From a virus (lineage: Duplodnaviria > Caudoviricetes), in the IMG/VR virus record IMGVR_UViG_3300005573_000128, positions 1 through 49,096 of that record: a stretch of DNA of 49,096 bases; one strand, 5' to 3'. This document shows positions 1,189 to 44,310 of the stretch, piece by piece. The notes beneath the pieces were generated by a model, which was not told where the DNA came from, did not search any database, and was given only the letters and a program-made list of their open reading frames with translations. Position numbers and translations under genes: made by a program. The first letter of the stretch is position 1. Every line of letters begins with the position of its first letter.

Positions 1189-1560
1189 TTGTTATTCCGC
1201 GTTTAAGGGTAAAAGGCAGTGATCTCACTTAAAAGTCCATAAAATACCCTTATTTTGCTTTAAAAGGCTTATAGTAAAGAGATTTTTTCAAGGTAAGGTA
1301 GAACATTACCCCTCTAAAGATCGCCTTTTATAAAGCCAAATAAAAGGGAGTAGTATTTGTTATTCCGCGTTTTAGGGATTGTTATTTTATGTTTTGGTGG
1401 AAGTCAGTGATCTTAGCCAAAAGTCCATAAAATGCCTTTATTTTCTTTTAAAAGGCTTATAGAAAGGCGATTTTTGCTGGATAAGGGTAGAACATTACCC
1501 CTTCTGAGAACGCTTTTTATAGGGGAAAATAAGGGCTTGTTATTCCGCGTTTTAGGGATT
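1189..1560. repeat. tandem 168/180-bp units delimited by TTGTTATTCCGCGTTT(T/A)AGGG, each containing a ~100-bp imperfect palindrome
   Basis: Boundary motif at 1189, 1357 and 1537. Shared internal blocks CAGTGATCT, AAAAGTCCATAAAAT, TTTAAAAGGCTTATAG, GGTAGAACATTACCCCT. Confidence 0.9.
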
Positions 1561-1588
1561 TGACAAAAGGGCTTTTTAGGACTATATT
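1560..1588 (+). promoter_or_regulatory. sigma70-like promoter
   Basis: TTGACA-17 bp-TATATT, with GGAC immediately before the -10 box. Confidence 0.75.
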
Positions 1589-2364: not shown

Positions 2365-2910
2365 TTGCCCAGTCCTTATAGGTCTCTCCATTTTATCCTC
2401 CTTTTCCTGTCCCCCTTCCTTTTTGGAAGAGGGATAATACCTGAGGATTTATCTTTTATTTCCCCTTTTAAGCGTATTCTTTACGAAGATGATTTAATTA
2501 AAATGGCTAAGGAATTTAATTACGAGCCTTATTTAAAAGCAGTTGTTTTATCTATCTTTTTTGAAGAACAAGGAAAAGGAAATAAGATAATCTTCTGGAA
2601 TAATAATTCATCTGGTTTCCATCCTTGGAAAAAAAGATTTCCTTGGGGCTGGGCAAAAAGATACTGGATTATTCTACCAGAAGGTTACACTATGCTTAAA
2701 GAAGGAAAAACAAAAAAAAGATGCCCTTATTTTTCTTTCCGCTTTTTAGCTGATTGCTTTCAAATTATGTGTGTTATTGTATACGACAGAGGTATCTTGG
2801 ATTATCGGACTTATCTTCTGAGATGGGCAGGAAAAGAATGGTATAATTCCCAATCAGTTTATAATTTTCAAGAAAGAATCAAAAAATTTTATTATTTATT
2901 AGGACAATGA
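2365..2910 (+). CDS. putative endolysin (glucosaminidase/lysozyme-like) with signal-peptide-like N-terminus
   Basis: E-Q-G-K-G...NNxxG, YFSF...D and YxxRWA pattern reminiscent of GH73-like hydrolases; TTG start uncertain. Confidence 0.45.
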   Translation: MPSPYRSLHFILLFLSPFLFGRGIIPEDLSFISPFKRILYEDDLIKMAKEFNYEPYLKAVVLSIFFEEQGKGNKIIFWNNNSSGFHPWKKRFPWGWAKRYWIILPEGYTMLKEGKTKKRCPYFSFRFLADCFQIMCVIVYDRGILDYRTYLLRWAGKEWYNSQSVYNFQERIKKFYYLLGQ

Positions 2911-3068
2911 TAATAGCAATTTGCCCTATTTGTGGAAAACCTATTTATTACGAAGAAGAAAAAGAATTTATTGAATGCCTTGATTTTAAAGGCTTTATTC
3001 ATAAAAATTGTTCAGAAGAAATTATTATTAAAACTCCTGATTGTAAAGATGGAAAATGTAATTTATAA
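2907..3068 (+). CDS. small Cys-rich zinc-binding protein (53 aa, not in ORF track)
   Basis: MIIAICPICGK...HKNC...CKDGKCNL*; ATGA overlap upstream and TAATG overlap downstream. Confidence 0.7.
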   Translation: MIIAICPICGKPIYYEEEKEFIECLDFKGFIHKNCSEEIIIKTPDCKDGKCNL

Positions 3069-3862
3069 TGGCTCTATCGTCTAATCTGGAAAGGACATCA
3101 GGTTTTCAACCTGAAGGTGAGGGTTCAAATCCCTCTAGAGCCATTTGTAAGCTTTATCTTGGTGATTGTTTAGAAATTATGAAACAATTACCAGATAAAG
3201 CCTTTGATTTAATACTTACTGACCCACCTTATCAGATTAGAGTAAAAAGTAAAATTGAACTTCATGGAAGAAAAGCTTTTTATCACAATTATGAAGAATT
3301 TATTAAATTAAATAGTGTTGATATTAAAGAGCTTTATAAAAAAATTTATCCTGAATTTGATAGACTTTTAAAAGAAACAGGTTCAGTATTAATGTTTGTG
3401 AGAAATGAATATATTACTTATGCGGTAGAAGAAGGGCAGAAAAATAATTTAGATTTAAAATGTGTTATTTATTGGCATAAAACAAATCCTCCTCCACAAG
3501 TAAGAAAGAAAAACTATCTTTCCGCTGTAGAAACTATTATTTGGCAAGCTAGAAGCGGAAAAAGTAAATTCACTTTTAATTTTAAACTCCAAAAAGAAAT
3601 GCTTAATTTTATATCTATGCCTATATGCGGAGGAAAAGAAAGAACTATACACCCTACCCAAAAACCATTAAAACTAATTGAGCATTTATTAGAAATTCAT
3701 AGTAATCCAGGCGATTTTGTATTAGACCCTTTTTTAGGCTCTGGAACAACAGCTGTAGCCTGTATTAAACTCAAAAGAAATATTATCGGAATAGAAATTG
3801 AGCCTAAATATTTCGAAATTGCCCAAAAAAGAATTAAAGAAGTCCAAAAGACTTTATTATAA
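3068..3862 (+). CDS. DNA N6-A/N4-C methyltransferase, beta class
   Basis: GDCLE, TDPPY (motif IV), HPTQKP, DPFLGSGTT (motif I). Confidence 0.92.
   Translation: MALSSNLERTSGFQPEGEGSNPSRAICKLYLGDCLEIMKQLPDKAFDLILTDPPYQIRVKSKIELHGRKAFYHNYEEFIKLNSVDIKELYKKIYPEFDRLLKETGSVLMFVRNEYITYAVEEGQKNNLDLKCVIYWHKTNPPPQVRKKNYLSAVETIIWQARSGKSKFTFNFKLQKEMLNFISMPICGGKERTIHPTQKPLKLIEHLLEIHSNPGDFVLDPFLGSGTTAVACIKLKRNIIGIEIEPKYFEIAQKRIKEVQKTLL
3070..3143 (+). tRNA. tRNA-Glu (anticodon TTC), CCA not encoded
   Basis: Acceptor GGCTCTA/TAGAGCC; anticodon arm TCAGG-TTTTCAA-CCTGA; T arm GAGGG-TTCAAAT-CCCTC. Confidence 0.9.
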
Positions 3863-20033: not shown

Positions 20034-23000
20034 ATGAGTTATTGGAAATATTTAAAATTATTAGATTTAAATGAAGAAAAATTAAAGAAAGAAGAAGCAC
20101 TTCCTGTTTCGTCTAATTTAGGTGATGTAGGGGAATATATAGAACAAATACGAAATTACTTAATAAAAGGCATTACTCCTCCTTTTGAAAAATTTTCTGT
20201 TTTTAAAGAAACTAATAATTATCTTTTTGAAAAATTTAGAATACTTGCTTCCTCTAATTACGAATTTTTAAAAACCTTAGAAGCGGAAAATTCATCTTTG
20301 CTTCAGCTTTTTCTTAAAGATACAAAGAAAAAAAAGTTAGACGAAGTTTCACCTCAAGAGATAGAAAATAATCCTAAAGTTCAAGATTTGAAAGCTTTAT
20401 ATCTTTATCAACATATTGGTGACCCAGAAATTGCCAAAATGTTTTATTCTTATTTATTAGATTATTATCTTGATAATAAATTTGATATAAGAAAGGGAGA
20501 AATATTATCACAAAATTTTAAAGATATTAAAAATTTATTAAATTATGCTTCTACAAAACTTCCTGAGATAAAAAAACAAGTAGAAACTTTATCACCAGAA
20601 GGCATAAAAATAGATTTTAAGCAATTAGATTTTAGTGAGGTTGATGATTTATATTGGGCAACAGATGAATTATTAGATACCCTTGCTCCTTATATTCCAG
20701 AAGAAAAAAAGAAAAAATTAAAAGAACTTGTGAAATTTCTTGATGAAAAAGCTACTGAACTTTCATTAAATCACGAAGATTTTTTTACTTCCGATAAAAG
20801 AATAGATAAAAATAGAGTATTAGAAGAACTCCAAGAACTAATTGATAGAAGTGAGAAAGAAGTTTTTCCTGGTTTAGCTGATTATTTTTTACCTCAAATT
20901 AAAACACAACTTTCAAAAAGAATTGCCCAACCACCCCAAAAAACTTTTTTAGAAAAGCTTACTCCTTTAACTCCTTCAGAGGAAGCATGGCGTTCTCTTT
21001 CTAAAATTCAATTAAGCCCAGAGAAAGAAGAAGTTTTAAAATATATAAATGAAAAAAAGATTTCTTTGCTTTCAGAAAATAAAATTAAAGAATTAACAGA
21101 AAGCTTTCCGATAATTACCGGAATTCCCAAAGAAGAATTAAGAAATAATTTAAATAGATTAGCTTTAAGTATTTTACCAGATATAGAGTTTTTTAATGTA
21201 TTTGGAGAAATAGTTTCTCAAGTAGAAGAAACTAAAGCATATCTAAATTCTACAGAGCAAATTGCTTTTGAAACAGCTGTATGGCATAGTTTGCCCGAAA
21301 ATCTTAAAATTGGATACCAATTATGGAGATTTACTGGAAGTCTTGTAGAACCGATAGTTTCTAATTTTTATAAGACAAAATATGCTGATGTAGAAAAGAT
21401 ATTTTATGTTAATTCTCAGAAAACTCTTTACGAAACAGTAAAAAAGATAAAAGAACAAAAAGGAATAGATGCTACAGATATTCTTTTATTAGATGCTTTT
21501 GGCGAATATAAAAAAGCTGTTCAGACAGCTCCTTTTTTGATAAATGAAGAAAAATCTTTAGCTACAATGGCAAAATGGATAATAGAATATATGCCAATTA
21601 CAGCCATAAAAGCTGGGCTTATAACATTGGGAGCACCAGGAGTTATTGCTACAGTTTTATCTACTGTTGCTGGTGCGGAATTAAGATCACAACTTGTTAA
21701 AAATTTAAATGATAAAGCTTATGAAATTGCTTTAGAACCAATTCAAATAGATACCCAAGAAGGCGGAATAATAATAAAAGGTGCTTTAAGAGATTTAAAA
21801 ACTTCTCAATTAATAGCAAGATTAGATGAATATACAGAAATTGGAACTGAGCAAGCAGGTGAATTATTTTTGGATACATTTTTCAAAGCTTTATTTAGCG
21901 GAATATCAAGTAAACTCCCATTCTTAAAATTACTTACTGATACTCCAATCTTAAAAAGATTGTTTGTTTTTCAACCTTTAAACTCTTGGGCTTCCGAAAT
22001 TGGTGAGGAATTATTAGCAATGCCTTTAGAAAAATTATGGCGTGGTGAAAAAATAACTGGAAAAGATTTTATAAATACTGCCTGGGAGGCATTAAAAACA
22101 TTTACTATTTTCTATGGTTATACAAATTTACCTGCTAGTTTAGTTTTAAATAAAGGTTTAACAAATAAGGAAGTGGAAAATATTCTAACTTACATGAAAG
22201 AAAGCTCAAAAGCAGTTGATTATATAAAAGAAATTGATGGTGAACTTTATGTATTTGATGATTTTACAAAAGAAGGGGAAAATACTTATAAAGTGACTTT
22301 GGTAAATGTTAATGATAAAAATAAAACTCATATTGAAATTATTACAAAAGAACAAGCCGAGGATTTTTTCTCAGGTTTTAATCAACATCTTAATTCGGAA
22401 AAAGCAATAAATTTAGTTGGTGATGATATAGAAATCGTAAGAACACTTTTAAATTATGGTGATTGGAAAAAATTTTCTGAAAAATTTGGTCAAAAAATTG
22501 ATAAACCTGAAAGAATAGATGAGATGGATTTAGTTATGCTTCAAATACCAGAAGATTTTAAAAATAATCCTGTTTTTAAACCAATTGCTCAAATATTTGA
22601 AAAAGAAGGCTTTAAAGAATTTAGCTTATTAGTTTTCCATAAAATAGGGCAGGGAAAACAAGTAGAATTTATATCTTTTCCTTTGGATAATAATAAAATT
22701 TTAAGAATATCTCCAAAAATATTAAAAGATTTACAAGGATATGTTCAAATTTTAAATTTTAAAGATAATTTTCCAGAAGCTAATGATATTATAAATATTG
22801 CTAATTTAACCAAATTCGGGGAAAGTCTTGATATTTACTATATTAATTCTAAAGGTGAACAAGCAAAAATTTCCATTCCAAGAGAAGATTTTTCAAAAAT
22901 TAAAAAAGATAATAGGAAAGGAATTGATATTTTTAGAATTGGAAGTAAAACAATTCCTTTGGATAATATTTATGGTGCTATATTAAGAGGCATTGAAAAA

Positions 23001-26000
23001 AATATAGGTTTTCTTAATCCTGAATTTCTTTTAACAAAGAGAGGTGTTGAATTAGTTAGAACCAGAGAAGTTAAACCTCCTTATACTATTTATGGAATCA
23101 ACTGGTCTAAAGCATTGCCATATTTAGTTTCCGATGAATTAAAAATTTATATTTTAAATATACCTTTGTTTCCTTCTCAAAGACAGGCTCTAAAAATATT
23201 AGCAATTTTAAAAAGATTAAATGATATAAAAAAGGAGATTAATGAAATAAACGAATCATTAAAAACTGTTAGCGAAAAAGAAAAAGCAGATTTAAGCCTA
23301 AAATTAGAAAATTTACAAAAAGAACAAGAGAGATTAAATAATGAATTTAATAAAATTGCTAAAAAGTTTACGGGGGAATTAAAGAAAGATTTTATAATTC
23401 ATTATGCGTTTTTAAGAAAAGATGGAGATATTTCTATAAGGGAAGATAATTTTCCTGATTTCTTTAAAAATGTTGAAAAATATATAAAGGATAACTATAA
23501 AATGAGTTTAGAAGAATTTTTAGGAAAACACGATGCTCAATTGCTTGTTAAATTTAAAGATACTGGAAGCATAGTAATATCAAAAAAAGATGAAAAAGGC
23601 AGAAAAAAAGTTAAAAAAATAGCTGAGGATATAGTAGATGTCAGCGAAAATGATTTAAAAGATGCCGAAGTCAGCGTTTACGATTTTAGAATAGGTAAGG
23701 AGATTAATGATAAATTAAACGAAAGAGGTTATGAGGATCCAGATGTTATTTCATTTTTTGTGAGAAATTACGGCGAAAATAGTTTGAAAAGAATAATAAA
23801 ATTAGATTTAAAATATGAAGATTACATAGCTTTATTAAAAAATGGTTATAATATTAGTGATATCAAAAGATATATTTTTAAACCTTCGTTATCTCTAGAA
23901 AAAGCAAAAAATAATTTATCTCAAATGTTAAAATTTAAAAAAGAAGACTTTTTAAGCGGAGAAACTAAAATTGAAAAAGCTACAGAAGAAGAACCAAAGG
24001 AAGAAATGAAAGGAGTTGAAAAAGGAGAAGAAGAGAAAAAAGTTGAGGAAATTAGAAAAGCGGAAGAAGAAGGAGAACCAAAAGAAGAAATTGAAAAAGC
24101 GGAAGAAGAGGAAGATAGAATAGAACTTATAGAGGATAATCTAAAATTATTATTAGATTTAGGTTGGAACAGAGAATTATTGATAAGATATGTTAAAAAC
24201 AAAGAAATCATAGAAGATATTATTAAAAACAAAAAAAGTTTCTTTGATGTTTTTAAAGAAGTGGTTACTAAATATGGTTTTCGCCCAGAAGATTTGAATG
24301 ATATGGATTTAGAAGAGAAATATAGAAAAATTAATGGATTATATAATCCACAAGAAACTGTTTTTTATCCTTACCCTAGATTTATTAAAATCATTTTACA
24401 AAAAGAATTTAGCCACATTTTTTCCCATCATTTAAGTATTTTTTTAAATCCATTTGTATTATTTTGGCAAAAATGGAGACTTGATACACTTAATCATATT
24501 GATTTTATTGATGATTTAGAAGATACTAGTTTATCAGTGTTATTTTCTAAATTACAGCAAGATGGAATAATAAATTTTGAAAAATTTAGTAAAGAAGTAA
24601 CGCCAGATGTTATTCATAGATATATTTCAGGAGTAGAAAATAATAGAAAAGAGTTAAAAGATTTTTTAAAACAATCAAAAGAGTTCCAAGAATATTTTAC
24701 TAAATATTTGAGTTTATTAACAGAATTTTTTGATAAAATAGATAAATTAATAAGAGAATTTCCGTCTGAAAAATATTTTGATGAATTTAGTAGATTTTTA
24801 ATTTGGATTATCAAAAAATATTTAATAATAACAAAACTTGAAGTAGAAATAGAAGACAAGAAAACTGGAAGGAAAATAAAAGATTTCTTTCCTGTTCCGC
24901 TTTTTAAACTTTTTGATGAGGAATCAATAAAATTAGCAGAGAAAGGACTTGGAATGAAGATAGAGCCTTTTGAAGTTAAACCATTTGAGTTTTTGGAATA
25001 TAAAGGCAAAAGGGGAGTTCTAAAAATAGATGGAGCTTATGTAAAACTTAATGAAGAGAAAAAAGAAGTTGAATATTATAAAGAAATAAGACCAGAAAAA
25101 TACGAAAAAGCGTTTCAAGAAGTAATAAAGATATTAAAAAGATACTTTGAAATTGGATATGTTGTTAATAGAGAACAAGAAAAGGATTTCTTTGAATTCT
25201 TTAAAAAGCGGAAAATTGAAAATTATTATATTATTGAATTAAATGAACCAGTTTTATTTGCTTGGGATTTATTATACAATGATAAAAGTATTGATTATCA
25301 GAAATCTTTAAAAGAAATTATTTCTCTTCATATATATCCAAGTTTTGAAAATATACTTACTTATCTTAGAAAATTTATTGGGTTTGGATATTATGAGCAT
25401 GAAAAAGTTTCAAATTTTTATGCCGAATTAGAAAGATTCTTTGAAGATTTTTTTTCGCAAAAAGAAATTAATGTTAAAAATTTAAAAAGATATGCTATAG
25501 AAATGTATATTTTGATGGCAAATTTAAATGACGCTCTTAAGAAGAATACTTTTTATTATTTCATAGAAATAATTGATAATAAACTTTCTTCCAATGACCT
25601 AGCGAGTTTTCTTTATAATTATATTCCGTTTTATTTTGTTTATTATTCTTTAATTCCCACTTATTTAAATTTTGAAAATCTTCAATATCCTTTTAGTCCT
25701 CATTTTAGATTATCAACTTCAAGCGATTACAAGATTTTTCTTTCTGTTTTAAAGAATATGTTGGAAAATTCAGGTTTATATGATAAAAGTTTTTATCTTT
25801 TCTTTGGCAAAATTTTAAAGGGAAAAGAAAAATTAAATAACTTCGTAATTTTAAATTATGTTTTCAATAATATCAGAAGGATGCTTTTTAGATTAAAAAA
25901 TGATGTTATAAAAGGAAGAATAAAAGGAAAAGAGATAAATAATTTAAAATTTTTAGGAAATTTAGGTGAAAAAGAAATAAATGACCTTGCTTTAAAAGAG

Positions 26001-29000
26001 GCAAAAATTTTTCTTGAAAATTTAAAGGCGGAATTAAAAGAAGAAGCACTTCCTAAAAAACCACAAACAATTTTCAAGGTTTCTTCCCAAAATATTGGAA
26101 AAGTATTACAACTTTTAAAAACACTATATAAAAATAAAGATTTAACTAATAAAGCATTATATTTTTATCTTAGAATAGAAAAAGAAAGAAAAACAGTAGA
26201 ACTTTATTGGCGTGTAGAAAAAATTAGTGATGACAAAATTATATTCCATTATCCTATCTTTTGGGATACCGAATTACAACGCCAAGATGCCTTACAAATA
26301 CTTCAAAAATATGGAATTTCATTAGATACTTCAATAGGAAATGCGTTGAAAAAAATTGAAGAAATATTACAAGAACAATATAAAGAATTTATTAAAACTC
26401 AAGAAGTTGTTAAGCCAACACTAACTGAAAAAATTAAAAAGACCCCGGAATTTCTGACAAAGATAGATTCTAGATTAGAAGAACTTAAATTTAAATTAAA
26501 AGAAATTATAGAACAAAAAATAGCATTAGAAGAAACGCCAATTTCTCATATTTTGGGCAAAGAAGTATCTTTTAAAGAATTTGAAGACTTTTTAGTGGAA
26601 AATAAAATAAAAGAAATAGAATTTTCTTTGCCCGATATTTGGATTAATAAAACAAAAGAAGGCTTCATAATTTATCCTTACGATATTGTTAAGACCATTT
26701 TTGACCCTTATGGTCTTTCCGCTTCTGATATTGGTGTATTTCTTGATATTCCTTCTATATTAGATTATCTTTTAAGGCGGAAAGAAAATAAATATATAAA
26801 AAGCCTTCTTAATTTTATTGAAAAATTTAATCAATGGCTTAAAAAACAACCTCATTTACCTGAAATAATATTCCAAACTTTTGGTTTACATTCTCCTGAA
26901 AAAGAAGAGTTTTGGAATTTATTTGAAGGGAATACTAAAATTTATATTACTAAAAATCAAGGACAAATAACAGTTAACGATTTTACTTATTATTATAAAA
27001 GTATTAAAGAAAAGCAAAGAACGATTTTTTATGATGAAAACGAGATTTTAGTTCCTATACTTGTTTTTGAAGATGCGGAAGGTAATTTATTAATAGAAGA
27101 TTTAAAAATCAGATTTGATGAGGATGAAGGGGATTATGTATGTGACCAAAAATTAGAATTAAGAGATTTTTTAAGAATAATTACAAGTCATATAGATAAA
27201 ATTCCATCTTATATTTTTACCTTAAAAGAACAACTAGGTAGTAAGATTAAAAAACTTAAAAGATTCATTTTATTATATAACCCAGAAAGCGGAACTATAT
27301 TAGTTTTTAGAAGTGGCGAAAAAGAACTTTATTACGATGATATTAAATTTGAGGTTCAAAATAAAAAAGGAGAATTATATTCTTATCATGGTATTCCTAA
27401 AATTGATATGATTAAAAATATTGAATATTCTGGATATTTGAGGATACTTCTATCACCAATCCAAGATTTAGAAAAAAATTTTTGGAAAATTTCTCTTTCT
27501 AATTATGGCGAGAAAAAGTATGGTAAAATAAGATTTATTTATAATTTAAATTGGAAGGAAAATTTGCCTTTAAAAGAATTAGATAATTATAATGTTACTT
27601 ATTTTAATGACCCTAATCTTTATTTAATAAACGAACCACAAGAAAAATTTACAAAATTTTTAGAAACTTATCAGAAAAAAATAGTTAATGAAAATTTTGA
27701 TGTTATAAATAAAGAGCTTGATATTGCTTTTGTAAAGATTCCTGTTTTTCTTTTAAGAGAAACAGAAAGAGGCTATGAGGCTCAATCACAAGAAATTTCG
27801 CTGAAAAAATTTCTTGAAGATTTTTCACCAATTGAAAGGACAATAGAGCTTAATGATAATGATATATCATTGATTTTAAATTCTTTAGCTTCTTATAAAG
27901 ATGGTATAAATAAATTATATTCTTCTAGCGATTTTCTTGAACTTTTTTATAATATTTTACAATTTAATGAAATTTTTCAAAAAAAATTTTTAGAGGCACT
28001 TGAAATCAATGAAATACCTACTGATAAAGAATTAGAAATTAAATCAATTGCTAATCTTCTAGACTTTTTAGAAAATTTTTTGCCCAGAATGCCCTCAGAA
28101 ATTTTAGAAACAATTAAAAGATTACGAGAACTTTATGAAAAACTTGAAAAAGCCAAAAAATTACCTGAAACAAAGGAAAAATTAAATCAAAGAATAAAAG
28201 AATTAAATAGACAATTTAAAGAAGCAGAAAAAAATGAAGAAAAAGAAAAATTAATTAAAGAAATTAAAAAGGCGGAAAAAGAACTTATAGAATTAGAGAA
28301 ACTTGAAAAGGAATTATCTGAGAAAGAAAAATTAATTGATAAATTAAAAGAATTAGAAAAACTTGGAGAGAGCCGAGTGATTATAATGAAAAAAGCAAAA
28401 ATAGTTAGAAAAATAGAAGAATTAGAAAAATTTGGTGTAGAGGCAAGATTAGCTGGGGAAATAGAGGAAAATTCAAAATATCTTTTTAGATTATTTAGAA
28501 ATTTCTTAGAAAGAAAGAAATTACAGCAATTATTCTTGGATAAAATTTATGAATATTTTAAAAATGCTATTAATAAATTTCCGCAATTACCTAGTATAGA
28601 TGATTTATCTAAATTTTACGAAAAATATTATATAATTCCCAAAGAGCAATTTGAACAATTCCAAAGTAAAGTTTTATCAAAACTCAATGACGCGGAAAAA
28701 GCAATTATTTATTATCTACATCCATTCATTCTGACATTAAAAGATTTAGATTTATCAAAAATTGAAGACCCAATTGTGAGAAATGTTCTTAGTGGTATTA
28801 TAAATTTAATAAATGATAAAAGAGCGTTAGTTTTGATACTTTTGACAGGTGGCAGATTTCATTTTGATTTATTTCAAGCGTTTTTATATTTTTATATGAA
28901 ATCAACCCACGAATTATTAGAAACAAAGAATGTTGTATTTTTACCAAATATTCTTACCGCTTATTTACCATACTTTTTTGCTCCAGATGTAAAAGATGTA

Positions 29001-32000
29001 GATAATTTATGGCGTGATTTATATTTTTATTATCTTTTTGGTGAGCAACCTTCTGTTTTTGTATCAGGTGGTAAATTTGCTTTATATGAGCCTCGCCAAA
29101 TTATGATAGAAGGTGATATATTTGATATTTTAAAACAAAAATATGAATTATTTAGAGCAAATTCCCCGATTAAAAATTTAAAAGAATTTATAAAATACTA
29201 TTTCTTTGATACTTCTAGAGAAGTATTGGCAATATTTGTGATTAAAAACAATGAAATTAAAGAGATGCGATTATTGGGAATCGGTAATGAAGATAGTGTG
29301 ATACCCAGCGAAAATTATAAAGAAATTTATGAAGATTTAAAAGAAAAGTATCCCAAAGAAGAAGGATATATGCTTTTAGAAGTTCATAATCACCCAGCAA
29401 ATACATTGCCAACCATACATAATTTCAATTATTATTTTAGAATAAGAAGAGAATTAGGTTTTGACGCGGAATATTATAAGAGTGCTGTATTAACAGAAGA
29501 TTATATTTTCTTTATTGATGTTACGCCTGAGGAATATTCTAAAAATAAAGATTTTTATGAAAAGAATTTTCAAGGATATAAACTTTCAAAAATTTTAGAA
29601 AAATTTGAAGAAAAAGAAATACCATTTTTAAAAATCTATCCTTTAGAAGATTTTACTTCTAAATATATAATTCATTTTTATGACGATTATGTAATAAATA
29701 AAGAAAATTTTTGGAATGAAATTAGGCAAAGATTTAGTAATGTGGAAAATCCAGATGTTGTAGTATTTCCCGATACTTATGTTTCGCTTTTTGGTTATGA
29801 AATACCTAAACTTGAAAACGCGGAAACACTAAAAGAATTCTTCAAAAAACTTATGATAAATAATAGTTATAGACCATTTATGTATTTTATGGTTTTTATA
29901 AAAGACAAATTTCCACAAGAATGGGTTAGCACAGCTTTTGAAGAAGCAATAAAAGAAGTTGAAAAAGATTTAAAAACTAAAATAGTTGGTGAGTGTATTA
30001 TTTATGGATTTGATACTGATAGAAAACAAATTACAAAATTAGGCTATGCTAGAGTTTTACCAGTTAATATTTTTCCTCTTAGAGTTACCAAAGCAGATTT
30101 AGAACAATTGGAAAATTTCCCTTATCTTAAAGAAGAAATTAGTGAGGAAAAAGAAAAAAATAAAAGAATAGAACTTTTTATTAATGAATTAAATGATGCC
30201 ATAGAAACAGGAAAAGATGTTGAAGCGATTATTGATGGTTGGATAGAAAGAGGTATAACAGACGACATTAATACTTATATAGAAGCCGTTGCCGAAAGAA
30301 AAAAAATGGAAGCAAAATTATTTGATATGCCACAGGATTTTAGGGAATATATATTAGATTTTATACAAAGAACTGCTGGGGAAAAAATTACAATAACAAA
30401 TCTTATTAATGAAAGGATAGAGCCAAAGGAATTTGCTATAAGACCACCAACAACAGAAAAAGGAGAAGAAATTAAAGGAGAAGAAGCTGTTGGTGAAGCA
30501 GATATAACAGGAAAACGGATAGAAATGGAAGAAATTATGATAGAAGAAAAAAAGATTAAAATTCCAAAAATATATATTACAATTTTACAAAATAATTTTT
30601 ATATTCCTAAAGAGCAGGCGATAGAGGAATTAAAAAAGATGAAAGGCGATCCTATTAAAACATTTATTAATTTAGCTAGAATAACACAATATCCTACGAA
30701 AGAAGATATAAAGCGGAATCCTAATATTTTGTTAAATTCGGAATATATTCTAATTCATGAGATGTATGTTGATGAAAATGAAAAAATAATAAAATTTAAT
30801 ACTGAGAATGACGCAAAGGCTAGAGCTAGAATTTTAAATGAGGAACTACCTGATGAAGAACGATGGCAAGTTGGGAGAGCAAGAGATAAATACTTTTTAT
30901 ATCGTGATAAAATTATTTTGACGGATAGAATTGAAGAATTAAGTGTTAAAGATGAAAATTTAATAATAAAAGCAACTGGAGAAGAATATAGTTTTCCGCT
31001 TGATAATTTTATTCACGAAGAAAATCAGCAAGTATTTAATTTTTCTTTAGTTTTACAAGAGCTTACTGAGGATTCTATAAAAAGAACGCTAAGATATCTA
31101 CCTAATTATTATATAGCTCAAAAAACTGATAATTACGAAGACGCGGAAAAAGCTAAAGAAGAACTTTATAAAAGAGGATTTTCTGAAAAAGATTTAAAAA
31201 TTGAGGAATATAAACTCAAAGAAGGCGGAAGTGTATTTATAATTTGGGCAAGAAGAAGACATTTTGAAATTGCTATCTTAAAAGGATATGGAAAAATATT
31301 TTTTGAAGCAGTCCAAAAAATAAGAACTACTCCCTATTTCCCAGCAATGTTTAAATTAGCTCAACTTTATGTAAGATTACCTACATATCAAAGACAATTG
31401 CTAATGAAATTAATGGTTTTAGCAATGCTTTATAATTTAAATCTTACTAGAAGTATTGAGGAAGTTAATAATTTAATAAAAGAATTAAAATTATTAGAAA
31501 TTATCAAAAAAATCAAAAAAGATAGGCTTTTAAAAGACTTTTTTAAAAAGCTAAGCAATAAAATTGCTAAAAAGATAAGACCTGGGCAAGAAATTGCTAC
31601 AGACTTTATAACAAATAAAGCTAATGAAATTTTAGATGCTTATCCTCAAGAAGAAAAAGAGCAGTTAACAAAAATGTTAGAAACATTATATCTAATCAAA
31701 TGGTTAATTGAATCTTGGGAAAAAATAAGAACTACAGAAGAATTTCAAAAATTACAAGGAACTCCAGAAGGGCAAGCAGAAATTGCTCAGCAAGGCTTAA
31801 TGTCTATTGATAATTTACCAAATATAATAAGTCCTTATACAAATAAGGAAATTAGAATTTATGATTACATAGATAAAAATATATTAACAGAATTTCATTC
31901 GAAAATGAGCGAATTTTATGACAAACAAAGAAGAGAGATTGTTAGGGCTATTTTAATAGCTTCTGGTTTTGAAGAAGTCGATAAAGACCATTTTTGGCGT

Positions 32001-34991
32001 GAAGGAAGTTTTTATCATTTAGATGATATGGTTAAAACTTGGGGAAAAGATTATTATTTCCCACATACTTTTTTTGGGCAATATCTTTTAAAAATTAATG
32101 ACAAAATTGTTGCTTCTTATAATGATACATCAGAGCTTGCCTATATTTTAACAACTGAAACGGTAAAACATTATTTAGGTGAAAAAAGGAATAAAATAGA
32201 TATTGAACATAATTTGATGTATTCTGGTAACGCAAGTAGCATTTTATTATTAAATCTTTCGCCCGGAATGACATTAATAAACTATGCTATTAGAACAAGA
32301 AATTATAGTATGCTTTTATTTGATTTTTTCAAAACTTTATTTTCAAATTTAGGAATGAAAATTGAAGAAATTTCAAAAGAAGAAAAAAAAGAGTATGAAG
32401 AAAAAGATTGGCAAGTTGTATATGAAACAGAAGATAAAGTTATAGTTGCTAAGGATGAAACAGAGAAAACAGATGTAAGAATTATTAGAGGAATTTCAAA
32501 TTTAATGAGACGAGAAACCGAAACTGTTGATGTTTTTATGCCTTTAGTATTAGAAGAAGTTATTGCCAATAATGCGTTCCAGACAAAACGATGGATACAA
32601 AGATTGATTTTCCGTTCGAGTTGGAATTCAGTTATTAGAGGAGTTAATAATCAAGAATTATTATCAGAATTACTAAAAATAGAAAATGACCTTTTTGGAG
32701 TAATTAGAGACCCAATAGCAGAAAGACTAAATGCTATTTTTGAGGGTGTAGTAGCCTTTTTCCAAAGATTAATTTCCAAATCTGCTCTTGTAAAACCTCC
32801 GATAATAAACCAATTAGCGGAAACTATACTTTCTTGGAGTGCTCTATTAGCTAGTGCTGTTGTATTAGTGCCTAATATAGGATATCATTTGGTAAATTCG
32901 CTACAAGTTCCTGTTTTAGGAACTATTCATTATGGACCGGTATTAACTATGAAAGCATTATGGAAAACTTTAAAATATTTCCGTCCCTTAGGAAGGGATG
33001 TTATTGGCAATTTATGGAAGATTACTTTATCTTCAATGCCTGCTACTGCTGGTCAAGCGGATATAGAAAGAAGAGCTGATTGGTCATATAAAATAATTAA
33101 TCCTACAAGACGATTTATATCATCATTAATTTCTGTAGCAGAGTTATTAAACCAAAGATGGGGCTTTATGATAGGAATTGAGATGTTTAATGAACTTTTA
33201 AATTCTAAAATTAAAATGATTGTTAATGGAAAAATTCAGGATGTTACTTTTAAAGAATATCTTAATTTCCTTTGGACAAAAGAATGGAAATATTCTGAAA
33301 AAGAAATAAAAAATTATTTAGAAATGTTAGCAATATTAACTGGAATATTTGTTAATTATCAAATTAATTTCTCTAGGGTAATGCGTGGTTTTTATCCAAG
33401 AGCTTTTGATATGCCATTTTTTAGAACTACAGTCTTATGGTTGAAAGGATATTTTTATGGTTTTATAGTAAATTTCATTGCCAGACTACAAAATCCTTCT
33501 TTAAATATGTGGAATATTTTAATAAATTTAGGGCAAGACCTTTTAAGCCAAAAACCAGATAAAACATTATTACAAGAAGCAGTTAAATTTTTAGATAAAT
33601 ATCCTAATTTGAATGAAAATTTATTAAAACTTCTTGATTTGGTTAATTTTATAAATGAAAAAGGAATAGAAATTCCTAATGAAATGACTTTAGAGGAAAT
33701 TTTAAAACAGCCTGAAGTGAAAGATGTTAAAGTTATTTTTGATAAAAGATTTTTCTCTATAACGCGGAAATTAAAATGGGAAAGATTAAGATTCTTAGCT
33801 TGGTTTATAATTATCTATTTCTTATTACTTGGCTTAAGGGGAATAGAATGGTTAATGAGTTTATTTTATCGTCTTGTTCCGGAACTTGACCAAAAAGTAA
33901 GTATAGCAAAACAAAGTATAAAGAGTAAAATTGGAGAAAATTGGTATTATTTCTTAAATTATGGAGTTCTTTCAACAATGTTGGGTTATGATTGGGTTCA
34001 AAAATTTTTGCCAGCAATATCAATTGCTAATTTTGGTCGCACTCTAGCTGGTTCTGCTGAGGTTATGGTTGGAGCTTTTAGGGAGTGGCGTAGAGTAAGC
34101 GAATTATATCCTTTTAAATCAAAACTAACAACTCTTTTCATAGCCTCTTTAAGACAATCAGGTATTTTCTGGCCAATAACTCAAATAATACCATCTATAG
34201 CTGGCTTAAAAAATGATATAGTTTTTACACAAGAATTAAATCCCTTGGGTAGGCTTATAAATATTAGAGAATATACACCAAAATTTTCTTTAGCTTATTT
34301 TCTTAGCAAATATTTATCTCCTTCGCTTCTTTATATTTTAGGTATTCCACTAGGACATTCTGAAATGGTTCAAACTTATCGTTTTTTAGAAAATGTTACA
34401 AATTATTTTAATGAAAGAGCAAGTTATATTAGAAGCAAGGTTCTTCCTGTTTATATATTAACTTTTGATGAATATCTACTTGGTAAAGTAAAAAAAGAGG
34501 AATATGAAAGAGTTAAGAAAACAACTAAAGAACAACTTAAGCTTTATTTAAAATCAATTGAAAAAGGATATGAAATGTTAGGAATTACAGGTGAAGAAAA
34601 AAGAGAAAAAACATTAAATCATTTTATTACAAGTCTATCTGGATACGCATTTCTTGCTTCTTCTAATTTAATACAACCAAATCTTGTCTCAAGGCAAATA
34701 GGAAGAGCAAATGATATGATTTTTTATAACATTTTATCTTCTCCTACTATTCAAAATAATAGAATTATAAAAGATGCTCTTAAAGAATATCTTCTTTTTA
34801 ATATTTCTGACGATATCGGTATTACTCCTAATACAACAGAACAGCTTTTAATCTTATTGCCTTTAATAAAAGAAGTTTTAGAAGAAGAGCCAACTTTAAA
34901 AAAGCTCCTTGAAGCGGAAAAATTAGAATTTGAGCCCAAAGAAATAAAAATAGGCAAACTATACGAACTATTTAAAAAATCTAAAAAATGA
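20034..34991 (+). CDS. giant 4985-aa putative virion-ejected polyvalent protein with a JAB/RadC-like domain
   Basis: Uninterrupted 15-kb ORF; REVLAIF...LLEVHNHP at ~29.2-29.4 kb; coiled coils; hydrophobic C-terminal region. Confidence 0.7.
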   Translation: MSYWKYLKLLDLNEEKLKKEEALPVSSNLGDVGEYIEQIRNYLIKGITPPFEKFSVFKETNNYLFEKFRILASSNYEFLKTLEAENSSLLQLFLKDTKKKKLDEVSPQEIENNPKVQDLKALYLYQHIGDPEIAKMFYSYLLDYYLDNKFDIRKGEILSQNFKDIKNLLNYASTKLPEIKKQVETLSPEGIKIDFKQLDFSEVDDLYWATDELLDTLAPYIPEEKKKKLKELVKFLDEKATELSLNHEDFFTSDKRIDKNRVLEELQELIDRSEKEVFPGLADYFLPQIKTQLSKRIAQPPQKTFLEKLTPLTPSEEAWRSLSKIQLSPEKEEVLKYINEKKISLLSENKIKELTESFPIITGIPKEELRNNLNRLALSILPDIEFFNVFGEIVSQVEETKAYLNSTEQIAFETAVWHSLPENLKIGYQLWRFTGSLVEPIVSNFYKTKYADVEKIFYVNSQKTLYETVKKIKEQKGIDATDILLLDAFGEYKKAVQTAPFLINEEKSLATMAKWIIEYMPITAIKAGLITLGAPGVIATVLSTVAGAELRSQLVKNLNDKAYEIALEPIQIDTQEGGIIIKGALRDLKTSQLIARLDEYTEIGTEQAGELFLDTFFKALFSGISSKLPFLKLLTDTPILKRLFVFQPLNSWASEIGEELLAMPLEKLWRGEKITGKDFINTAWEALKTFTIFYGYTNLPASLVLNKGLTNKEVENILTYMKESSKAVDYIKEIDGELYVFDDFTKEGENTYKVTLVNVNDKNKTHIEIITKEQAEDFFSGFNQHLNSEKAINLVGDDIEIVRTLLNYGDWKKFSEKFGQKIDKPERIDEMDLVMLQIPEDFKNNPVFKPIAQIFEKEGFKEFSLLVFHKIGQGKQVEFISFPLDNNKILRISPKILKDLQGYVQILNFKDNFPEANDIINIANLTKFGESLDIYYINSKGEQAKISIPREDFSKIKKDNRKGIDIFRIGSKTIPLDNIYGAILRGIEKNIGFLNPEFLLTKRGVELVRTREVKPPYTIYGINWSKALPYLVSDELKIYILNIPLFPSQRQALKILAILKRLNDIKKEINEINESLKTVSEKEKADLSLKLENLQKEQERLNNEFNKIAKKFTGELKKDFIIHYAFLRKDGDISIREDNFPDFFKNVEKYIKDNYKMSLEEFLGKHDAQLLVKFKDTGSIVISKKDEKGRKKVKKIAEDIVDVSENDLKDAEVSVYDFRIGKEINDKLNERGYEDPDVISFFVRNYGENSLKRIIKLDLKYEDYIALLKNGYNISDIKRYIFKPSLSLEKAKNNLSQMLKFKKEDFLSGETKIEKATEEEPKEEMKGVEKGEEEKKVEEIRKAEEEGEPKEEIEKAEEEEDRIELIEDNLKLLLDLGWNRELLIRYVKNKEIIEDIIKNKKSFFDVFKEVVTKYGFRPEDLNDMDLEEKYRKINGLYNPQETVFYPYPRFIKIILQKEFSHIFSHHLSIFLNPFVLFWQKWRLDTLNHIDFIDDLEDTSLSVLFSKLQQDGIINFEKFSKEVTPDVIHRYISGVENNRKELKDFLKQSKEFQEYFTKYLSLLTEFFDKIDKLIREFPSEKYFDEFSRFLIWIIKKYLIITKLEVEIEDKKTGRKIKDFFPVPLFKLFDEESIKLAEKGLGMKIEPFEVKPFEFLEYKGKRGVLKIDGAYVKLNEEKKEVEYYKEIRPEKYEKAFQEVIKILKRYFEIGYVVNREQEKDFFEFFKKRKIENYYIIELNEPVLFAWDLLYNDKSIDYQKSLKEIISLHIYPSFENILTYLRKFIGFGYYEHEKVSNFYAELERFFEDFFSQKEINVKNLKRYAIEMYILMANLNDALKKNTFYYFIEIIDNKLSSNDLASFLYNYIPFYFVYYSLIPTYLNFENLQYPFSPHFRLSTSSDYKIFLSVLKNMLENSGLYDKSFYLFFGKILKGKEKLNNFVILNYVFNNIRRMLFRLKNDVIKGRIKGKEINNLKFLGNLGEKEINDLALKEAKIFLENLKAELKEEALPKKPQTIFKVSSQNIGKVLQLLKTLYKNKDLTNKALYFYLRIEKERKTVELYWRVEKISDDKIIFHYPIFWDTELQRQDALQILQKYGISLDTSIGNALKKIEEILQEQYKEFIKTQEVVKPTLTEKIKKTPEFLTKIDSRLEELKFKLKEIIEQKIALEETPISHILGKEVSFKEFEDFLVENKIKEIEFSLPDIWINKTKEGFIIYPYDIVKTIFDPYGLSASDIGVFLDIPSILDYLLRRKENKYIKSLLNFIEKFNQWLKKQPHLPEIIFQTFGLHSPEKEEFWNLFEGNTKIYITKNQGQITVNDFTYYYKSIKEKQRTIFYDENEILVPILVFEDAEGNLLIEDLKIRFDEDEGDYVCDQKLELRDFLRIITSHIDKIPSYIFTLKEQLGSKIKKLKRFILLYNPESGTILVFRSGEKELYYDDIKFEVQNKKGELYSYHGIPKIDMIKNIEYSGYLRILLSPIQDLEKNFWKISLSNYGEKKYGKIRFIYNLNWKENLPLKELDNYNVTYFNDPNLYLINEPQEKFTKFLETYQKKIVNENFDVINKELDIAFVKIPVFLLRETERGYEAQSQEISLKKFLEDFSPIERTIELNDNDISLILNSLASYKDGINKLYSSSDFLELFYNILQFNEIFQKKFLEALEINEIPTDKELEIKSIANLLDFLENFLPRMPSEILETIKRLRELYEKLEKAKKLPETKEKLNQRIKELNRQFKEAEKNEEKEKLIKEIKKAEKELIELEKLEKELSEKEKLIDKLKELEKLGESRVIIMKKAKIVRKIEELEKFGVEARLAGEIEENSKYLFRLFRNFLERKKLQQLFLDKIYEYFKNAINKFPQLPSIDDLSKFYEKYYIIPKEQFEQFQSKVLSKLNDAEKAIIYYLHPFILTLKDLDLSKIEDPIVRNVLSGIINLINDKRALVLILLTGGRFHFDLFQAFLYFYMKSTHELLETKNVVFLPNILTAYLPYFFAPDVKDVDNLWRDLYFYYLFGEQPSVFVSGGKFALYEPRQIMIEGDIFDILKQKYELFRANSPIKNLKEFIKYYFFDTSREVLAIFVIKNNEIKEMRLLGIGNEDSVIPSENYKEIYEDLKEKYPKEEGYMLLEVHNHPANTLPTIHNFNYYFRIRRELGFDAEYYKSAVLTEDYIFFIDVTPEEYSKNKDFYEKNFQGYKLSKILEKFEEKEIPFLKIYPLEDFTSKYIIHFYDDYVINKENFWNEIRQRFSNVENPDVVVFPDTYVSLFGYEIPKLENAETLKEFFKKLMINNSYRPFMYFMVFIKDKFPQEWVSTAFEEAIKEVEKDLKTKIVGECIIYGFDTDRKQITKLGYARVLPVNIFPLRVTKADLEQLENFPYLKEEISEEKEKNKRIELFINELNDAIETGKDVEAIIDGWIERGITDDINTYIEAVAERKKMEAKLFDMPQDFREYILDFIQRTAGEKITITNLINERIEPKEFAIRPPTTEKGEEIKGEEAVGEADITGKRIEMEEIMIEEKKIKIPKIYITILQNNFYIPKEQAIEELKKMKGDPIKTFINLARITQYPTKEDIKRNPNILLNSEYILIHEMYVDENEKIIKFNTENDAKARARILNEELPDEERWQVGRARDKYFLYRDKIILTDRIEELSVKDENLIIKATGEEYSFPLDNFIHEENQQVFNFSLVLQELTEDSIKRTLRYLPNYYIAQKTDNYEDAEKAKEELYKRGFSEKDLKIEEYKLKEGGSVFIIWARRRHFEIAILKGYGKIFFEAVQKIRTTPYFPAMFKLAQLYVRLPTYQRQLLMKLMVLAMLYNLNLTRSIEEVNNLIKELKLLEIIKKIKKDRLLKDFFKKLSNKIAKKIRPGQEIATDFITNKANEILDAYPQEEKEQLTKMLETLYLIKWLIESWEKIRTTEEFQKLQGTPEGQAEIAQQGLMSIDNLPNIISPYTNKEIRIYDYIDKNILTEFHSKMSEFYDKQRREIVRAILIASGFEEVDKDHFWREGSFYHLDDMVKTWGKDYYFPHTFFGQYLLKINDKIVASYNDTSELAYILTTETVKHYLGEKRNKIDIEHNLMYSGNASSILLLNLSPGMTLINYAIRTRNYSMLLFDFFKTLFSNLGMKIEEISKEEKKEYEEKDWQVVYETEDKVIVAKDETEKTDVRIIRGISNLMRRETETVDVFMPLVLEEVIANNAFQTKRWIQRLIFRSSWNSVIRGVNNQELLSELLKIENDLFGVIRDPIAERLNAIFEGVVAFFQRLISKSALVKPPIINQLAETILSWSALLASAVVLVPNIGYHLVNSLQVPVLGTIHYGPVLTMKALWKTLKYFRPLGRDVIGNLWKITLSSMPATAGQADIERRADWSYKIINPTRRFISSLISVAELLNQRWGFMIGIEMFNELLNSKIKMIVNGKIQDVTFKEYLNFLWTKEWKYSEKEIKNYLEMLAILTGIFVNYQINFSRVMRGFYPRAFDMPFFRTTVLWLKGYFYGFIVNFIARLQNPSLNMWNILINLGQDLLSQKPDKTLLQEAVKFLDKYPNLNENLLKLLDLVNFINEKGIEIPNEMTLEEILKQPEVKDVKVIFDKRFFSITRKLKWERLRFLAWFIIIYFLLLGLRGIEWLMSLFYRLVPELDQKVSIAKQSIKSKIGENWYYFLNYGVLSTMLGYDWVQKFLPAISIANFGRTLAGSAEVMVGAFREWRRVSELYPFKSKLTTLFIASLRQSGIFWPITQIIPSIAGLKNDIVFTQELNPLGRLINIREYTPKFSLAYFLSKYLSPSLLYILGIPLGHSEMVQTYRFLENVTNYFNERASYIRSKVLPVYILTFDEYLLGKVKKEEYERVKKTTKEQLKLYLKSIEKGYEMLGITGEEKREKTLNHFITSLSGYAFLASSNLIQPNLVSRQIGRANDMIFYNILSSPTIQNNRIIKDALKEYLLFNISDDIGITPNTTEQLLILLPLIKEVLEEEPTLKKLLEAEKLEFEPKEIKIGKLYELFKKSKK

Positions 34992-35680
34992 GAAAAATTG
35001 ATATTAGAAAAAAACAAGGTTTAGGAGAATTAACTTATGAAGTTTTTAAATATGACCCTCGTGCTTTTTTACTTACTTGTATATTCACTTATGACCCTGA
35101 TAGTAAAGAAAAGATAAGACCATTTCCTGATTATGATTATATTTGGTTTTGGCTTGATGTTTGGTTAAATGAGCAATATATTTTGATTTTAAAATCAAGG
35201 CAAATAATGGCTACTTGGACTTTTTTGGCTTTTCATTTTTGGAAGGCTTGTTTTTATCCAGGCACTTTTTGTATTTTACAATCTTCAAAAGAAAGCAAAG
35301 CAGGTTGGGGCGGAACAAAATCAGCAACAGACCCATCGGCTTTATTAAGTAGAGTAAAGTTTTTCTATGACCATTTACCTGAATTTATACATGACCATTG
35401 GGAAATTGCTTGTGCTTTTCAAGACCCAATGATAGTATTAAAAAACAAAAAAGAAGGGGGAGAAAGCATTTTAAAGGCTATTTCTTCAAAAGAATATGAT
35501 TTTAGAGGCTTTCCCAAAGGGATATATATATTAGCCGATGAGTTAGCATTTCAACCAGAAGCTCACCAAGCTTTTGTTTCCGCCCAACCGCTAATCGGAA
35601 GTGAAGGAAAATATACCGCAATAACTACAGCTGCTAATAATCAGTTTTTACTTTCTTTAATGTATGGAAAAGAAAGATGA
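34988..35680 (+). CDS. terminase large subunit, ATPase half
   Basis: ILKSRQIMATW (Walker A-like), ILADELAF (Walker B), ITTA coupling motif. Confidence 0.75.
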   Translation: MRKIDIRKKQGLGELTYEVFKYDPRAFLLTCIFTYDPDSKEKIRPFPDYDYIWFWLDVWLNEQYILILKSRQIMATWTFLAFHFWKACFYPGTFCILQSSKESKAGWGGTKSATDPSALLSRVKFFYDHLPEFIHDHWEIACAFQDPMIVLKNKKEGGESILKAISSKEYDFRGFPKGIYILADELAFQPEAHQAFVSAQPLIGSEGKYTAITTAANNQFLLSLMYGKER

Positions 35681-36714
35681 GTGAGGAAAGGTCTTATTTA
35701 GATAAATATCCCAAAGAAGTTAATACAAAAGAAGAAATTCATAAATATTTTCGTTGTAAAATACCTGATAATGCTATAAATCCTACTCCCTATACAATTC
35801 TTTGGAAAAATGAAAAGAATGGTTTTTGTATTTTATTAACATCTTATAAAGTTCTTCCGCAATATAGGGAAAATGAAGCGGAAATGGAAAAAGTAAAAAA
35901 GACTTTATCAAGAATAGAATTTAATAGAGAATATTTAATGGATGTTAATGTAAATTTAGCCCAAGCAAGAATTTATACTACTTTTAATGAACAGGTTCAT
36001 ATTATTAGAGAAGAAGAAATTAGATTAAATCCTGATTTTCCGATTTTAAGGGGATGGGATTTTGGAAGAAGGCATCCAGCTGTTGTTTTTGCTCAAAAAA
36101 TAACCCATGACGCGGAATATCCGCAAGGAACTTTTCTTATCTTAAAAGAAGTAATGGGAGAAAATGTAAGTTTAAATGAATTCATAGACCAAATATTACA
36201 TATATCCCAAATGGATTTTGAAGGTTTTAAATTTAAAGATTTTTGTGACCCTATTTCTATTACCCAAAAATCAGATAAAGCAGATTTTTCCGCAATGGAA
36301 CTTCTATATAATAGGGGTATAATTCCAGCCTACCAAAAATTTACTATCACAACAGGTGTTAATTTGATTGATACAATGCTAACTTATAGAATAGGTGGTA
36401 AATATCCTTTTATTTTAGTTTCTTCTTCTTGTTCTCAATTAATTTCAGGTTTTATGGGTGGTTTCAGATGGGATAAAAGTGGTTCTTTGCCTTTAAAAGA
36501 TGGTTATTATGAACATTTACACGATGCTTTAAGATATATAGTCACTTTAAATTATACTTTTGAAGAAGTTTTTTATCTTTCAAAAAGAGAACCCCACCAT
36601 AAACCAGTAATAACAGAAGATGTCTATACAAGAAGAATTAAAGAATATATTAAAAAGAAATTAGAAATAAAGAATAAAAAGATAAAAATAGTAAAGTTAG
36701 GACAGCCAAAATAA
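35677..36714 (+). CDS. terminase large subunit, nuclease half
   Basis: FNREY, RGWDFGRRHP, CDP, EHLHDALRY. Confidence 0.8.
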   Translation: MSEERSYLDKYPKEVNTKEEIHKYFRCKIPDNAINPTPYTILWKNEKNGFCILLTSYKVLPQYRENEAEMEKVKKTLSRIEFNREYLMDVNVNLAQARIYTTFNEQVHIIREEEIRLNPDFPILRGWDFGRRHPAVVFAQKITHDAEYPQGTFLILKEVMGENVSLNEFIDQILHISQMDFEGFKFKDFCDPISITQKSDKADFSAMELLYNRGIIPAYQKFTITTGVNLIDTMLTYRIGGKYPFILVSSSCSQLISGFMGGFRWDKSGSLPLKDGYYEHLHDALRYIVTLNYTFEEVFYLSKREPHHKPVITEDVYTRRIKEYIKKKLEIKNKKIKIVKLGQPK

Positions 36715-43989: not shown

Positions 43990-44310
43990 ATGGAAGAAAG
44001 AAAAGAAAACTTATCATTTGTAATATCAAAAGAAACGAAACAAGGGAAAATGACAATTGGTTATATTCCTGTTGATGAAATTCCGCCGAAAGCTCCAGTA
44101 GGAAGAAATCCCTTTTATATGGCTCTTTTAAGGAAATTCTTAGAAGATAAAAACACAAAGAAAGCGAAAATCTATTACGAAGGTATTCCACCTCGAAAGG
44201 TTGCTACTTTATTATTTTGCTCCTTAAAACATTTAAAGAAACAAAATCCCAATATAAAAATCAGCATCTACAAAAGAAACGGTGAAGTTTATATTGAAAA
44301 ATCGGAATAA
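43990..44310 (+). CDS. hypothetical basic protein
   Basis: AGGAGG RBS. Confidence 0.65.
   Translation: MEERKENLSFVISKETKQGKMTIGYIPVDEIPPKAPVGRNPFYMALLRKFLEDKNTKKAKIYYEGIPPRKVATLLFCSLKHLKKQNPNIKISIYKRNGEVYIEKSE

Follow-up and report, generated by a model that had tools for sequence, protein, structure and literature searches.

Can a complete tRNA gene also be the translated beginning of a protein-coding gene? The question is raised by a locus in the viral record IMGVR_UViG_3300005573_000128, whose 49,096 bases are both the entire virus record and the window analyzed here. An initial annotation of this DNA had claimed that a complete tRNA-Glu lies in frame at the 5′ end of a DNA methylase gene, and that excision of the tRNA and translation of the enzyme compete. 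The first claim is borne out by Rfam, ARAGORN and a stop-free open reading frame (ORF), and the coordinates given for the tRNA and the methylase all hold.

The three metagenome runs that contain the phage are from hot springs; two of them may be the source of the record, and the third, X3, belongs to a separate study. The genome has a G+C content of 28.6% and encodes a major head protein, a terminase and three DNA methylases; ARAGORN and Rfam detect a single tRNA gene. The terminase large subunit is split over 34988-36714 into two adjacent ORFs (230 and 345 aa) that join through an ATGA overlap, each corresponding to part of phrog_2, and a 4985-aa ORF at 20034-34991 takes up nearly one third of the genome. 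The segment 3861-4075, 5′ of an AAA-domain gene, is non-coding and looks like a replication origin, as it carries the repeat AAGCGAGACA three times along with direct and inverted repeats rich in CCCGGG. Four-base palindromes are strongly avoided genome-wide (seen/expected: ACGT 0/29, TGCA 1/89, GTAC 1/48), with further deficits in GCGC (3/46), GATC (11/107) and GGCC (5/40); this suggests a restriction-enzyme-rich host, consistent with the three phage methylases. Searching for the host through tRNA similarity gave a best match of ~80% across the full length. No relatives of the phage turned up in IMG/VR, whether the query was the methylase, either of two neighbouring proteins, either of two tRNA patterns or the hairpin described below. 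Matches among GenBank phages were short or distant with nothing closer, and a search of metagenomes for diverged strain DNA (43 of 64 parts scanned) recovered an identical copy alone (0 differences in 6792 bases, locus L098).

The tRNA-Glu(UUC) gene occupies 3070..3143 on the + strand, with its anticodon at 3105-3107, discriminator A3143 and no encoded CCA, and the same bases serve as codons 1-26 of the methylase frame. Rfam model RF00005 matches 3070-3143 with 69.7 bits over the full model (1-71), ARAGORN calls tRNA-Glu(ttc) at 3069-3144, and the predicted fold has a 7-bp acceptor stem and all stems intact (z −4.1). Read from the Rfam alignment, the tRNA carries the UUC anticodon with A37, U11-A24, U13.G22 and a four-base variable loop, which we take to be the identity set of tRNA-Glu; such a loop is found in 50 of 54 control tRNAs. 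Position 46 is G in the phage record and A in the X3 strain, as in 47 of 50 controls, and A46 is presumably part of a U13.G22.A46 triple. The D-loop is unusually A-rich. The idea that it evolved this way to dodge a stop codon was rejected, as inspection showed that the frame stays open with U's at those positions. The cognate codon GAA is very heavily used, as had been claimed, and is the second most used codon in the genome (1184 GAA vs 217 GAG), but this is not specific to the locus.

The ORF that passes through the tRNA (3068..3862, + strand, 264 aa) is predicted to encode a beta-class N6/N4 DNA methyltransferase. It matches N6_N4_Mtase (PF01555) with an E-value of 1.3e-39, and its nearest structures are CcrM and M1.HpyAVI. 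DPPY (3221-3232) precedes FLGSG (3731-3745), the beta-class order of DPPY before FxGxG given in a passage of PMC7544214. With M1.HpyAVI/DpnA (PDB 5HFJ, 5HEK) and CcrM (6PBD), the phage enzyme shares this motif order, the fold and an N-terminal cofactor Asp; it differs in that tRNA sequence encodes its first 25 residues. Beyond the phage's own strain cluster, one search found no second protein with such a tail, and neither did another, judged on 20 of its 150 listed matches. According to structure alignment, homologue alignment and AlphaFold, codons 27-34 (3146..3169, + strand) encode the first strand of the core together with the cofactor-contacting Asp33-Cys34. Of 119 homologues, 109 have D at the Asp33 position, 6 have N and one has G, while three short sequences are gapped there (D/N in 115 of 119); Asp33 aligns with D8 of M1.HpyAVI. 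According to a section of PMC5173035, D8 together with A9 bonds the purine of AdoMet, and the D8A substitution raises the AdoMet KD from 41 to 212 µM, an approximately fivefold weaker binding. AlphaFold models a strand at residues 27-31 and gives a pLDDT below 50 over residues 1-21, which in part reflects the empty alignment there; in this model, the 25-residue N-terminal tail is probably unstructured.

These features restrict where translation can begin, as the N-terminal strand and the purine-contact Asp are retained only with a start at or before approximately codon 27. Between the upstream in-frame stop (ending at 3061) and Asp33, the only start candidates are ATA3065, ATG3068, CTG3086 and ATT3143, and ATG3068 is the sole canonical start ahead of the core. 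The listing upholds the earlier observation that no ATG, GTG or TTG lies in frame between the tRNA and the GDCLE motif. Among homologues, a canonical start lies at most 25 codons from the Asp in 92 of 96 usable loci (122 given), and tails of at least 25 residues ahead of the Asp occur in 11 of 116. Comparison of four strain proteins (87-90% identity) revealed changes at 1 of 63 family-conserved versus 41 of 164 other positions (Fisher's exact test, p = 6 × 10⁻⁶), a pattern by which the methylase is maintained by purifying selection among strains. The strain differences concentrate at 3239-3268 (residues 58-67), in the loop after DPPY, where variation may change target specificity between strains.

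Upstream of the methylase lies a 53-aa Cys/His-rich ORF (2907..3068, + strand), which starts through an ATGA overlap with the preceding gene. It had been described as a Zn-finger ORF; the Cys/His pattern is present, but the protein has no Pfam or PHROG match. Four cluster members carry the ORF, each with 53 aa and ending in CNL, and no relatives were found beyond this cluster. Its coding signal is modest, with 5 synonymous and 6 non-synonymous codons in the second strain. At the junction TAATG (3066..3070, + strand), the stop TAA of this ORF (3066-3068) shares its last base with the methylase ATG (3068-3070), and the G of that ATG is the +1 base of the tRNA (G3070). The sequence agrees with the initial annotation on the stop/start overlap, on the G of the ATG as the first tRNA base and on the stop-free read-through; it also agrees that coupling recurs in this genome, as 22 of the 57 junctions between 58 script-tiled ORFs are stop/start overlaps (18 by 4 nt and 4 by 1 nt, including that of the methylase). 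A second methylase, at 44310, likewise starts via TAATG without a Shine-Dalgarno match. Since ATG3068 has no Shine-Dalgarno match and its AUG is predicted to be 82-98% paired in ribosome-free RNA at 37-70 °C, its use appears to depend on translation of the 53-aa ORF. Fold prediction also pairs the leader (3062..3069, + strand) with the trailer 3143-3151, lengthening the acceptor stem across the stop and the AUG; at 60-70 °C, this pairing is predicted to be mostly gone save for the pairs closest to the tRNA. The best sigma70-like match 5′ of the gene chain, at 1560..1588 on the + strand (11/12), is a candidate operon promoter by consensus match only, and matches of this kind are not clearly over chance in the genome (28 vs 20.4 ± 4.3 expected). 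A −1 frameshift joining the 53-aa ORF to the methylase was rejected, as inspection found no canonical slippery heptamer at the end of the ORF.

How often would such a junction arise by chance? For controls, 82 loci retrieved with tRNA-Glu patterns were run through ARAGORN, giving 540 calls; of the 428 distinct ones, 62 were dropped and 366 had a definable +1. ATG spans tRNA positions −2 to +1 in 112 of 366 controls and TAATG is present in 11 of 366; in 19 of 366, the frame of such an ATG also stays open across the tRNA, and one of these frames runs for at least 100 codons, through a tRNA array. The anticodon-arm register used by the methylase is stop-free in 59 of 72 related tRNA-Glu genes, which were chosen by similarity and are not independent. 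Because an ATG at this site is common among control tRNAs and the frame is easily open, these two features alone are not beyond chance and show no intent. The distinctive part, and an unusual one, is a conserved enzyme core that follows the tRNA in frame without a start of its own.

Two diverged strains bear on whether the arrangement is maintained. Strain protein P0124 has the same 25-residue tRNA-derived N-terminus, changed at Leu7 and Gly17 only, and retains GDCLE and Ile26; the simplest base changes behind the two substitutions, inferred from the protein, would hit the unpaired tRNA positions 3087 and 3116. Its altered codon at 3086 means that the CTG3086 start is gone in this strain. Homologues with stops in the tRNA frame had been named as grounds for abandoning the read-through, and in P0124 the frame stays open. 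The X3 contig covers 2545-3227 without gaps and has 50 differences, 39 of which are listed and underlie the comparison: the listed differences fall on 36 of 459 bases upstream versus 1 of 74 tRNA bases (p = 0.046). The single listed tRNA difference turns G46 into A and Gly17 into Asp, and TAATG is untouched by the listed differences. From the changes in these two strains (39 of the 50 in X3), the RNA seems constrained and the peptide not. By these sequence comparisons, the locus is conserved in the strains examined and so far confined to one phage lineage.

We also looked for tRNA-adjacent methylases elsewhere. IMG/VR pattern scans for a T-loop followed by a GDC motif (30 + 45 stretches, overlapping) yielded two distinct methylases directly behind a tRNA, in unrelated phages, and no second read-through case. 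Among loci of homologous methylases, a tRNA adjoins the gene in 0 of 122, with one tRNA-Thr elsewhere in locus L114. In L225 (1150-1226), the methylase ATG lies 2 nt past the discriminator of a tRNA-Ile(UAU) and opens the sequence MNKIIQGD; 3′ processing of that tRNA would yield a nearly leaderless message. In L208 and L226, the stop of an ORF upstream of a tRNA-Thr forms a TAATG that reaches the +1 base of the tRNA. Reading from this ATG meets a stop within the tRNA, and the methylase starts at a separate ATG 16 nt past it, with the start MIKLVHGD in L208. The methylase Met of L225 and L208 occupies the register of the phage Ile26. Identity to the phage enzyme is ~27% for L208/L226, and L225 gives two local matches with 49%. 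In the stretch 1148-2015 of L208, and likewise in L226, the methylase gene is inserted in a phage tRNA array, and at a relaxed threshold ARAGORN calls a second tRNA-Thr in L208 (1940-2015) that overlaps the last methylase codons, where Rfam has no match. In seven further loci (L142, L143, L146, L151, L152, L153 and L173), a tmRNA gene encoded on the other strand lies ~30 nt from the end of the methylase homologue.

The order seen in L225 and L208/L226 is plausibly a precursor-like state, these loci being analogues and not ancestors. The phage arrangement likely arose through compact packing, from an ORF-TAATG-tRNA-ATG-methylase order in which the tRNA frame was open by chance and the ATG of the methylase itself either disappeared or was not brought along. 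By this analogy, the phage arrangement is one step from the L225/L208 state.

The same register supplies an alternative, a methylase start at the non-canonical ATT3143 (Ile26; 3143..3145, + strand), whose A is the tRNA discriminator base. The overlap would then be one base, the open upstream frame incidental, and an internal promoter at 3041-3069 could free the start by giving a transcript without the 5′ strand of the tRNA. ATT3143 stands exactly where the L225 and L208 methylases have their ATG, Ile26 persists in P0124, and 3 of 96 homologue loci (L128, L157 and L035) have no ATG, GTG or TTG and seemingly start at ATT or ATA. These three, however, have a strong Shine-Dalgarno-like motif (GGAG or GAGG) just upstream, whereas the 15 nt ahead of ATT3143 contain neither and are predicted to be ~75-80% paired. 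The promoter match (10/12) does end at 3069, but such matches are not above chance (28 vs 20.4 ± 4.3). Moreover, 3′ trimming at the discriminator deletes the A of this codon, and a ribosome restarting at TAATG produces the enzyme regardless. We consider a start at ATT3143 rather unlikely and retain it as a rival to the start at ATG3068, which is the best supported.

A second alternative concerns the tRNA itself: it could be a non-working relic, either an old attachment site or a decaying gene, that was absorbed into coding sequence, so that no tRNA is made and nothing competes. G46 in place of the usual A (G in 3 of 50 controls), the odd A-rich D-loop and the absence of CCA would fit such a relic, and SSV-type integrase genes carry tRNA sequence according to a passage of PMC8371274. 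Against this, the tRNA is full length with 69.7 bits and intact stems; it is more conserved than the flanking coding DNA in the X3 strain, which has the canonical A at position 46; and the strain changes avoid the stems yet alter the peptide. No integrase was found among the 47 phage proteins scanned (a set excluding the 4985-aa protein and some small ORFs), and the listed tRNA-like contigs of the three runs differ at 6-7 of 43-53 bases. A relic is improbable on this evidence.

Weakest is a start at ATG3179 (Met38, 227 aa), or a non-functional gene: JGI calls four cluster members from Met38 and the ATG is predicted to be unpaired in a hairpin loop, but this start, which had also been named as refuting the read-through, loses strand 27-31 and Asp33 (D/N in 115 of 119 homologues), and is very unlikely to work since the enzyme is under selection and its homologues start upstream; GDCLE is retained in P0124, and the purifying selection argues against decay, leaving the whole alternative highly improbable. 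The short calls, by which 4 of 6 database copies lack 36-37 residues, likely stem from masking of the tRNA.

Behind the tRNA, in the coding region, we identified a feature that the initial annotation does not mention. A 20-bp hairpin (3151..3201, + strand; −23.4 kcal/mol, z −6.8) begins 7 nt past the tRNA discriminator, with one bulge, one G-U pair and a 10-nt loop that holds most of ATG3179. It is followed at once by the U-rich tract TTTGATTT (3203..3210, + strand), with 6 T in 8 nt as in terminators. The loop exceeds the 3-8 nt rule of the scan tool, so the terminator scan does not list the element and we class it as terminator-like only. Ten hairpin-plus-U-tract sites occur on the + strand, including 3151-3210. 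Among 9459 in-frame 51-nt windows in 12 genes, the hairpin is the most stable, its window having been picked post hoc after the fold was seen, and genome-wide 28 of 7007 windows are equally stable. None of 96 tRNA-less homologue loci reaches this stability; the best is −18.4 at 63% G+C, and the best among 49 low-G+C loci is −11.3. Two sets of synonymous recodings matched the hairpin 16 times in 3000 and 6 times in 5000, with the qualifications that the encoded peptide is self-complementary by nature (recoded mean approximately −9.5 kcal/mol) and that other coding windows show similar recoding z-scores. Across codons 28-45, P0124 has three amino-acid changes, at both stem ends and the bulge codon, a pattern compatible with a kept stem. 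Alternatively, the hairpin could serve as a cleavage site for RNase III or as a palindrome bound by a protein.

How might one RNA serve both genes? In our judgment, coupled translation probably passes through the tRNA, and transcripts that are not translated are probably cut by RNase P within the AUG. A ribosome ending the 53-aa ORF at 3066-3068 would occupy the 5′ side of the acceptor stem, restart at the AUG and read through the tRNA without a stop until 3862, producing the methylase with its 25-residue tail; a transcript carrying ribosomes could not hold the cloverleaf and would yield enzyme. On a ribosome-free transcript, the cloverleaf would form, and RNase P, which cuts between −1 and +1 of a tRNA (PMC6582537), would cut AU^G between 3069 and 3070. 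Trimming of the 3′ end at the discriminator would then take the A of ATT3143. The excised RNA would leave the 53-aa ORF with its stop and a methylase fragment with only Met38 and no usable start. The hairpin and U-tract would likely form on untranslated RNA only, ending or marking the pre-tRNA. Since translation and tRNA folding or excision would be mutually exclusive, we infer one product per transcript. The claim of competition thus stands in part: excision would remove the methylase start because the RNase P site lies between the U and the G of the AUG, while the competition itself stays conditional. Tentatively, the locus could further be a ribosome-gated switch, in which the amounts of methylase and tRNA-Glu relative to each other depend on the translation load and the terminator in the next codons frees pre-tRNA without a trailing ribosome. 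The methylase would then be, to the same tentative degree, an anti-restriction gene whose translated 5′ end is a working tRNA. Overall, we favour reading the locus as a segment that serves as both tRNA and mRNA, followed by a terminator-like element.

Several systems have RNA that is both tRNA-shaped and translated, or excision that cuts a message, among them tmRNA, mitochondrial tRNA punctuation and RNase P cutting of polycistronic mRNA. The tRNA-like part of tmRNA is untranslated, whereas the phage tRNA is translated; mitochondrial punctuation frees mRNAs by excision, whereas excision in the phage would destroy a start. Genes of SSV-type ('suicidal') integrases contain a site that matches part of a host tRNA. 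As PMC8371274 indicates, they resemble the phage locus in having tRNA-related sequence within a translated viral gene, but theirs is a recombination site in a recombinase, whereas the phage methylase frame begins with a complete tRNA. The methylase shares the geometry of TAATG/ATGA coupling in phages, but its restart codon doubles as the RNase P cut site. The L225 and L208/L226 loci have the same gene order, and L208 also has TAATG on the tRNA +1 base, but in both a stop interrupts the frame within the tRNA and a separate ATG serves the methylase, whereas the phage has an open frame and no own ATG. In the literature searched, mostly outside subscription journals, no report surfaced of a phage or bacterial gene whose translated start is a complete tRNA. 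Taken singly, the enzyme and the tRNA are each typical of their families.

Genome annotation assumes that a tRNA gene and a protein gene on the same strand do not overlap; an apparently working tRNA that is probably also translated breaks this rule. If similar overlaps exist elsewhere, they get masked. The locus offers a small model of ribosome traffic versus RNase P on one RNA, and of a phage that would ration a methylase while supplying a tRNA for its second most used codon.
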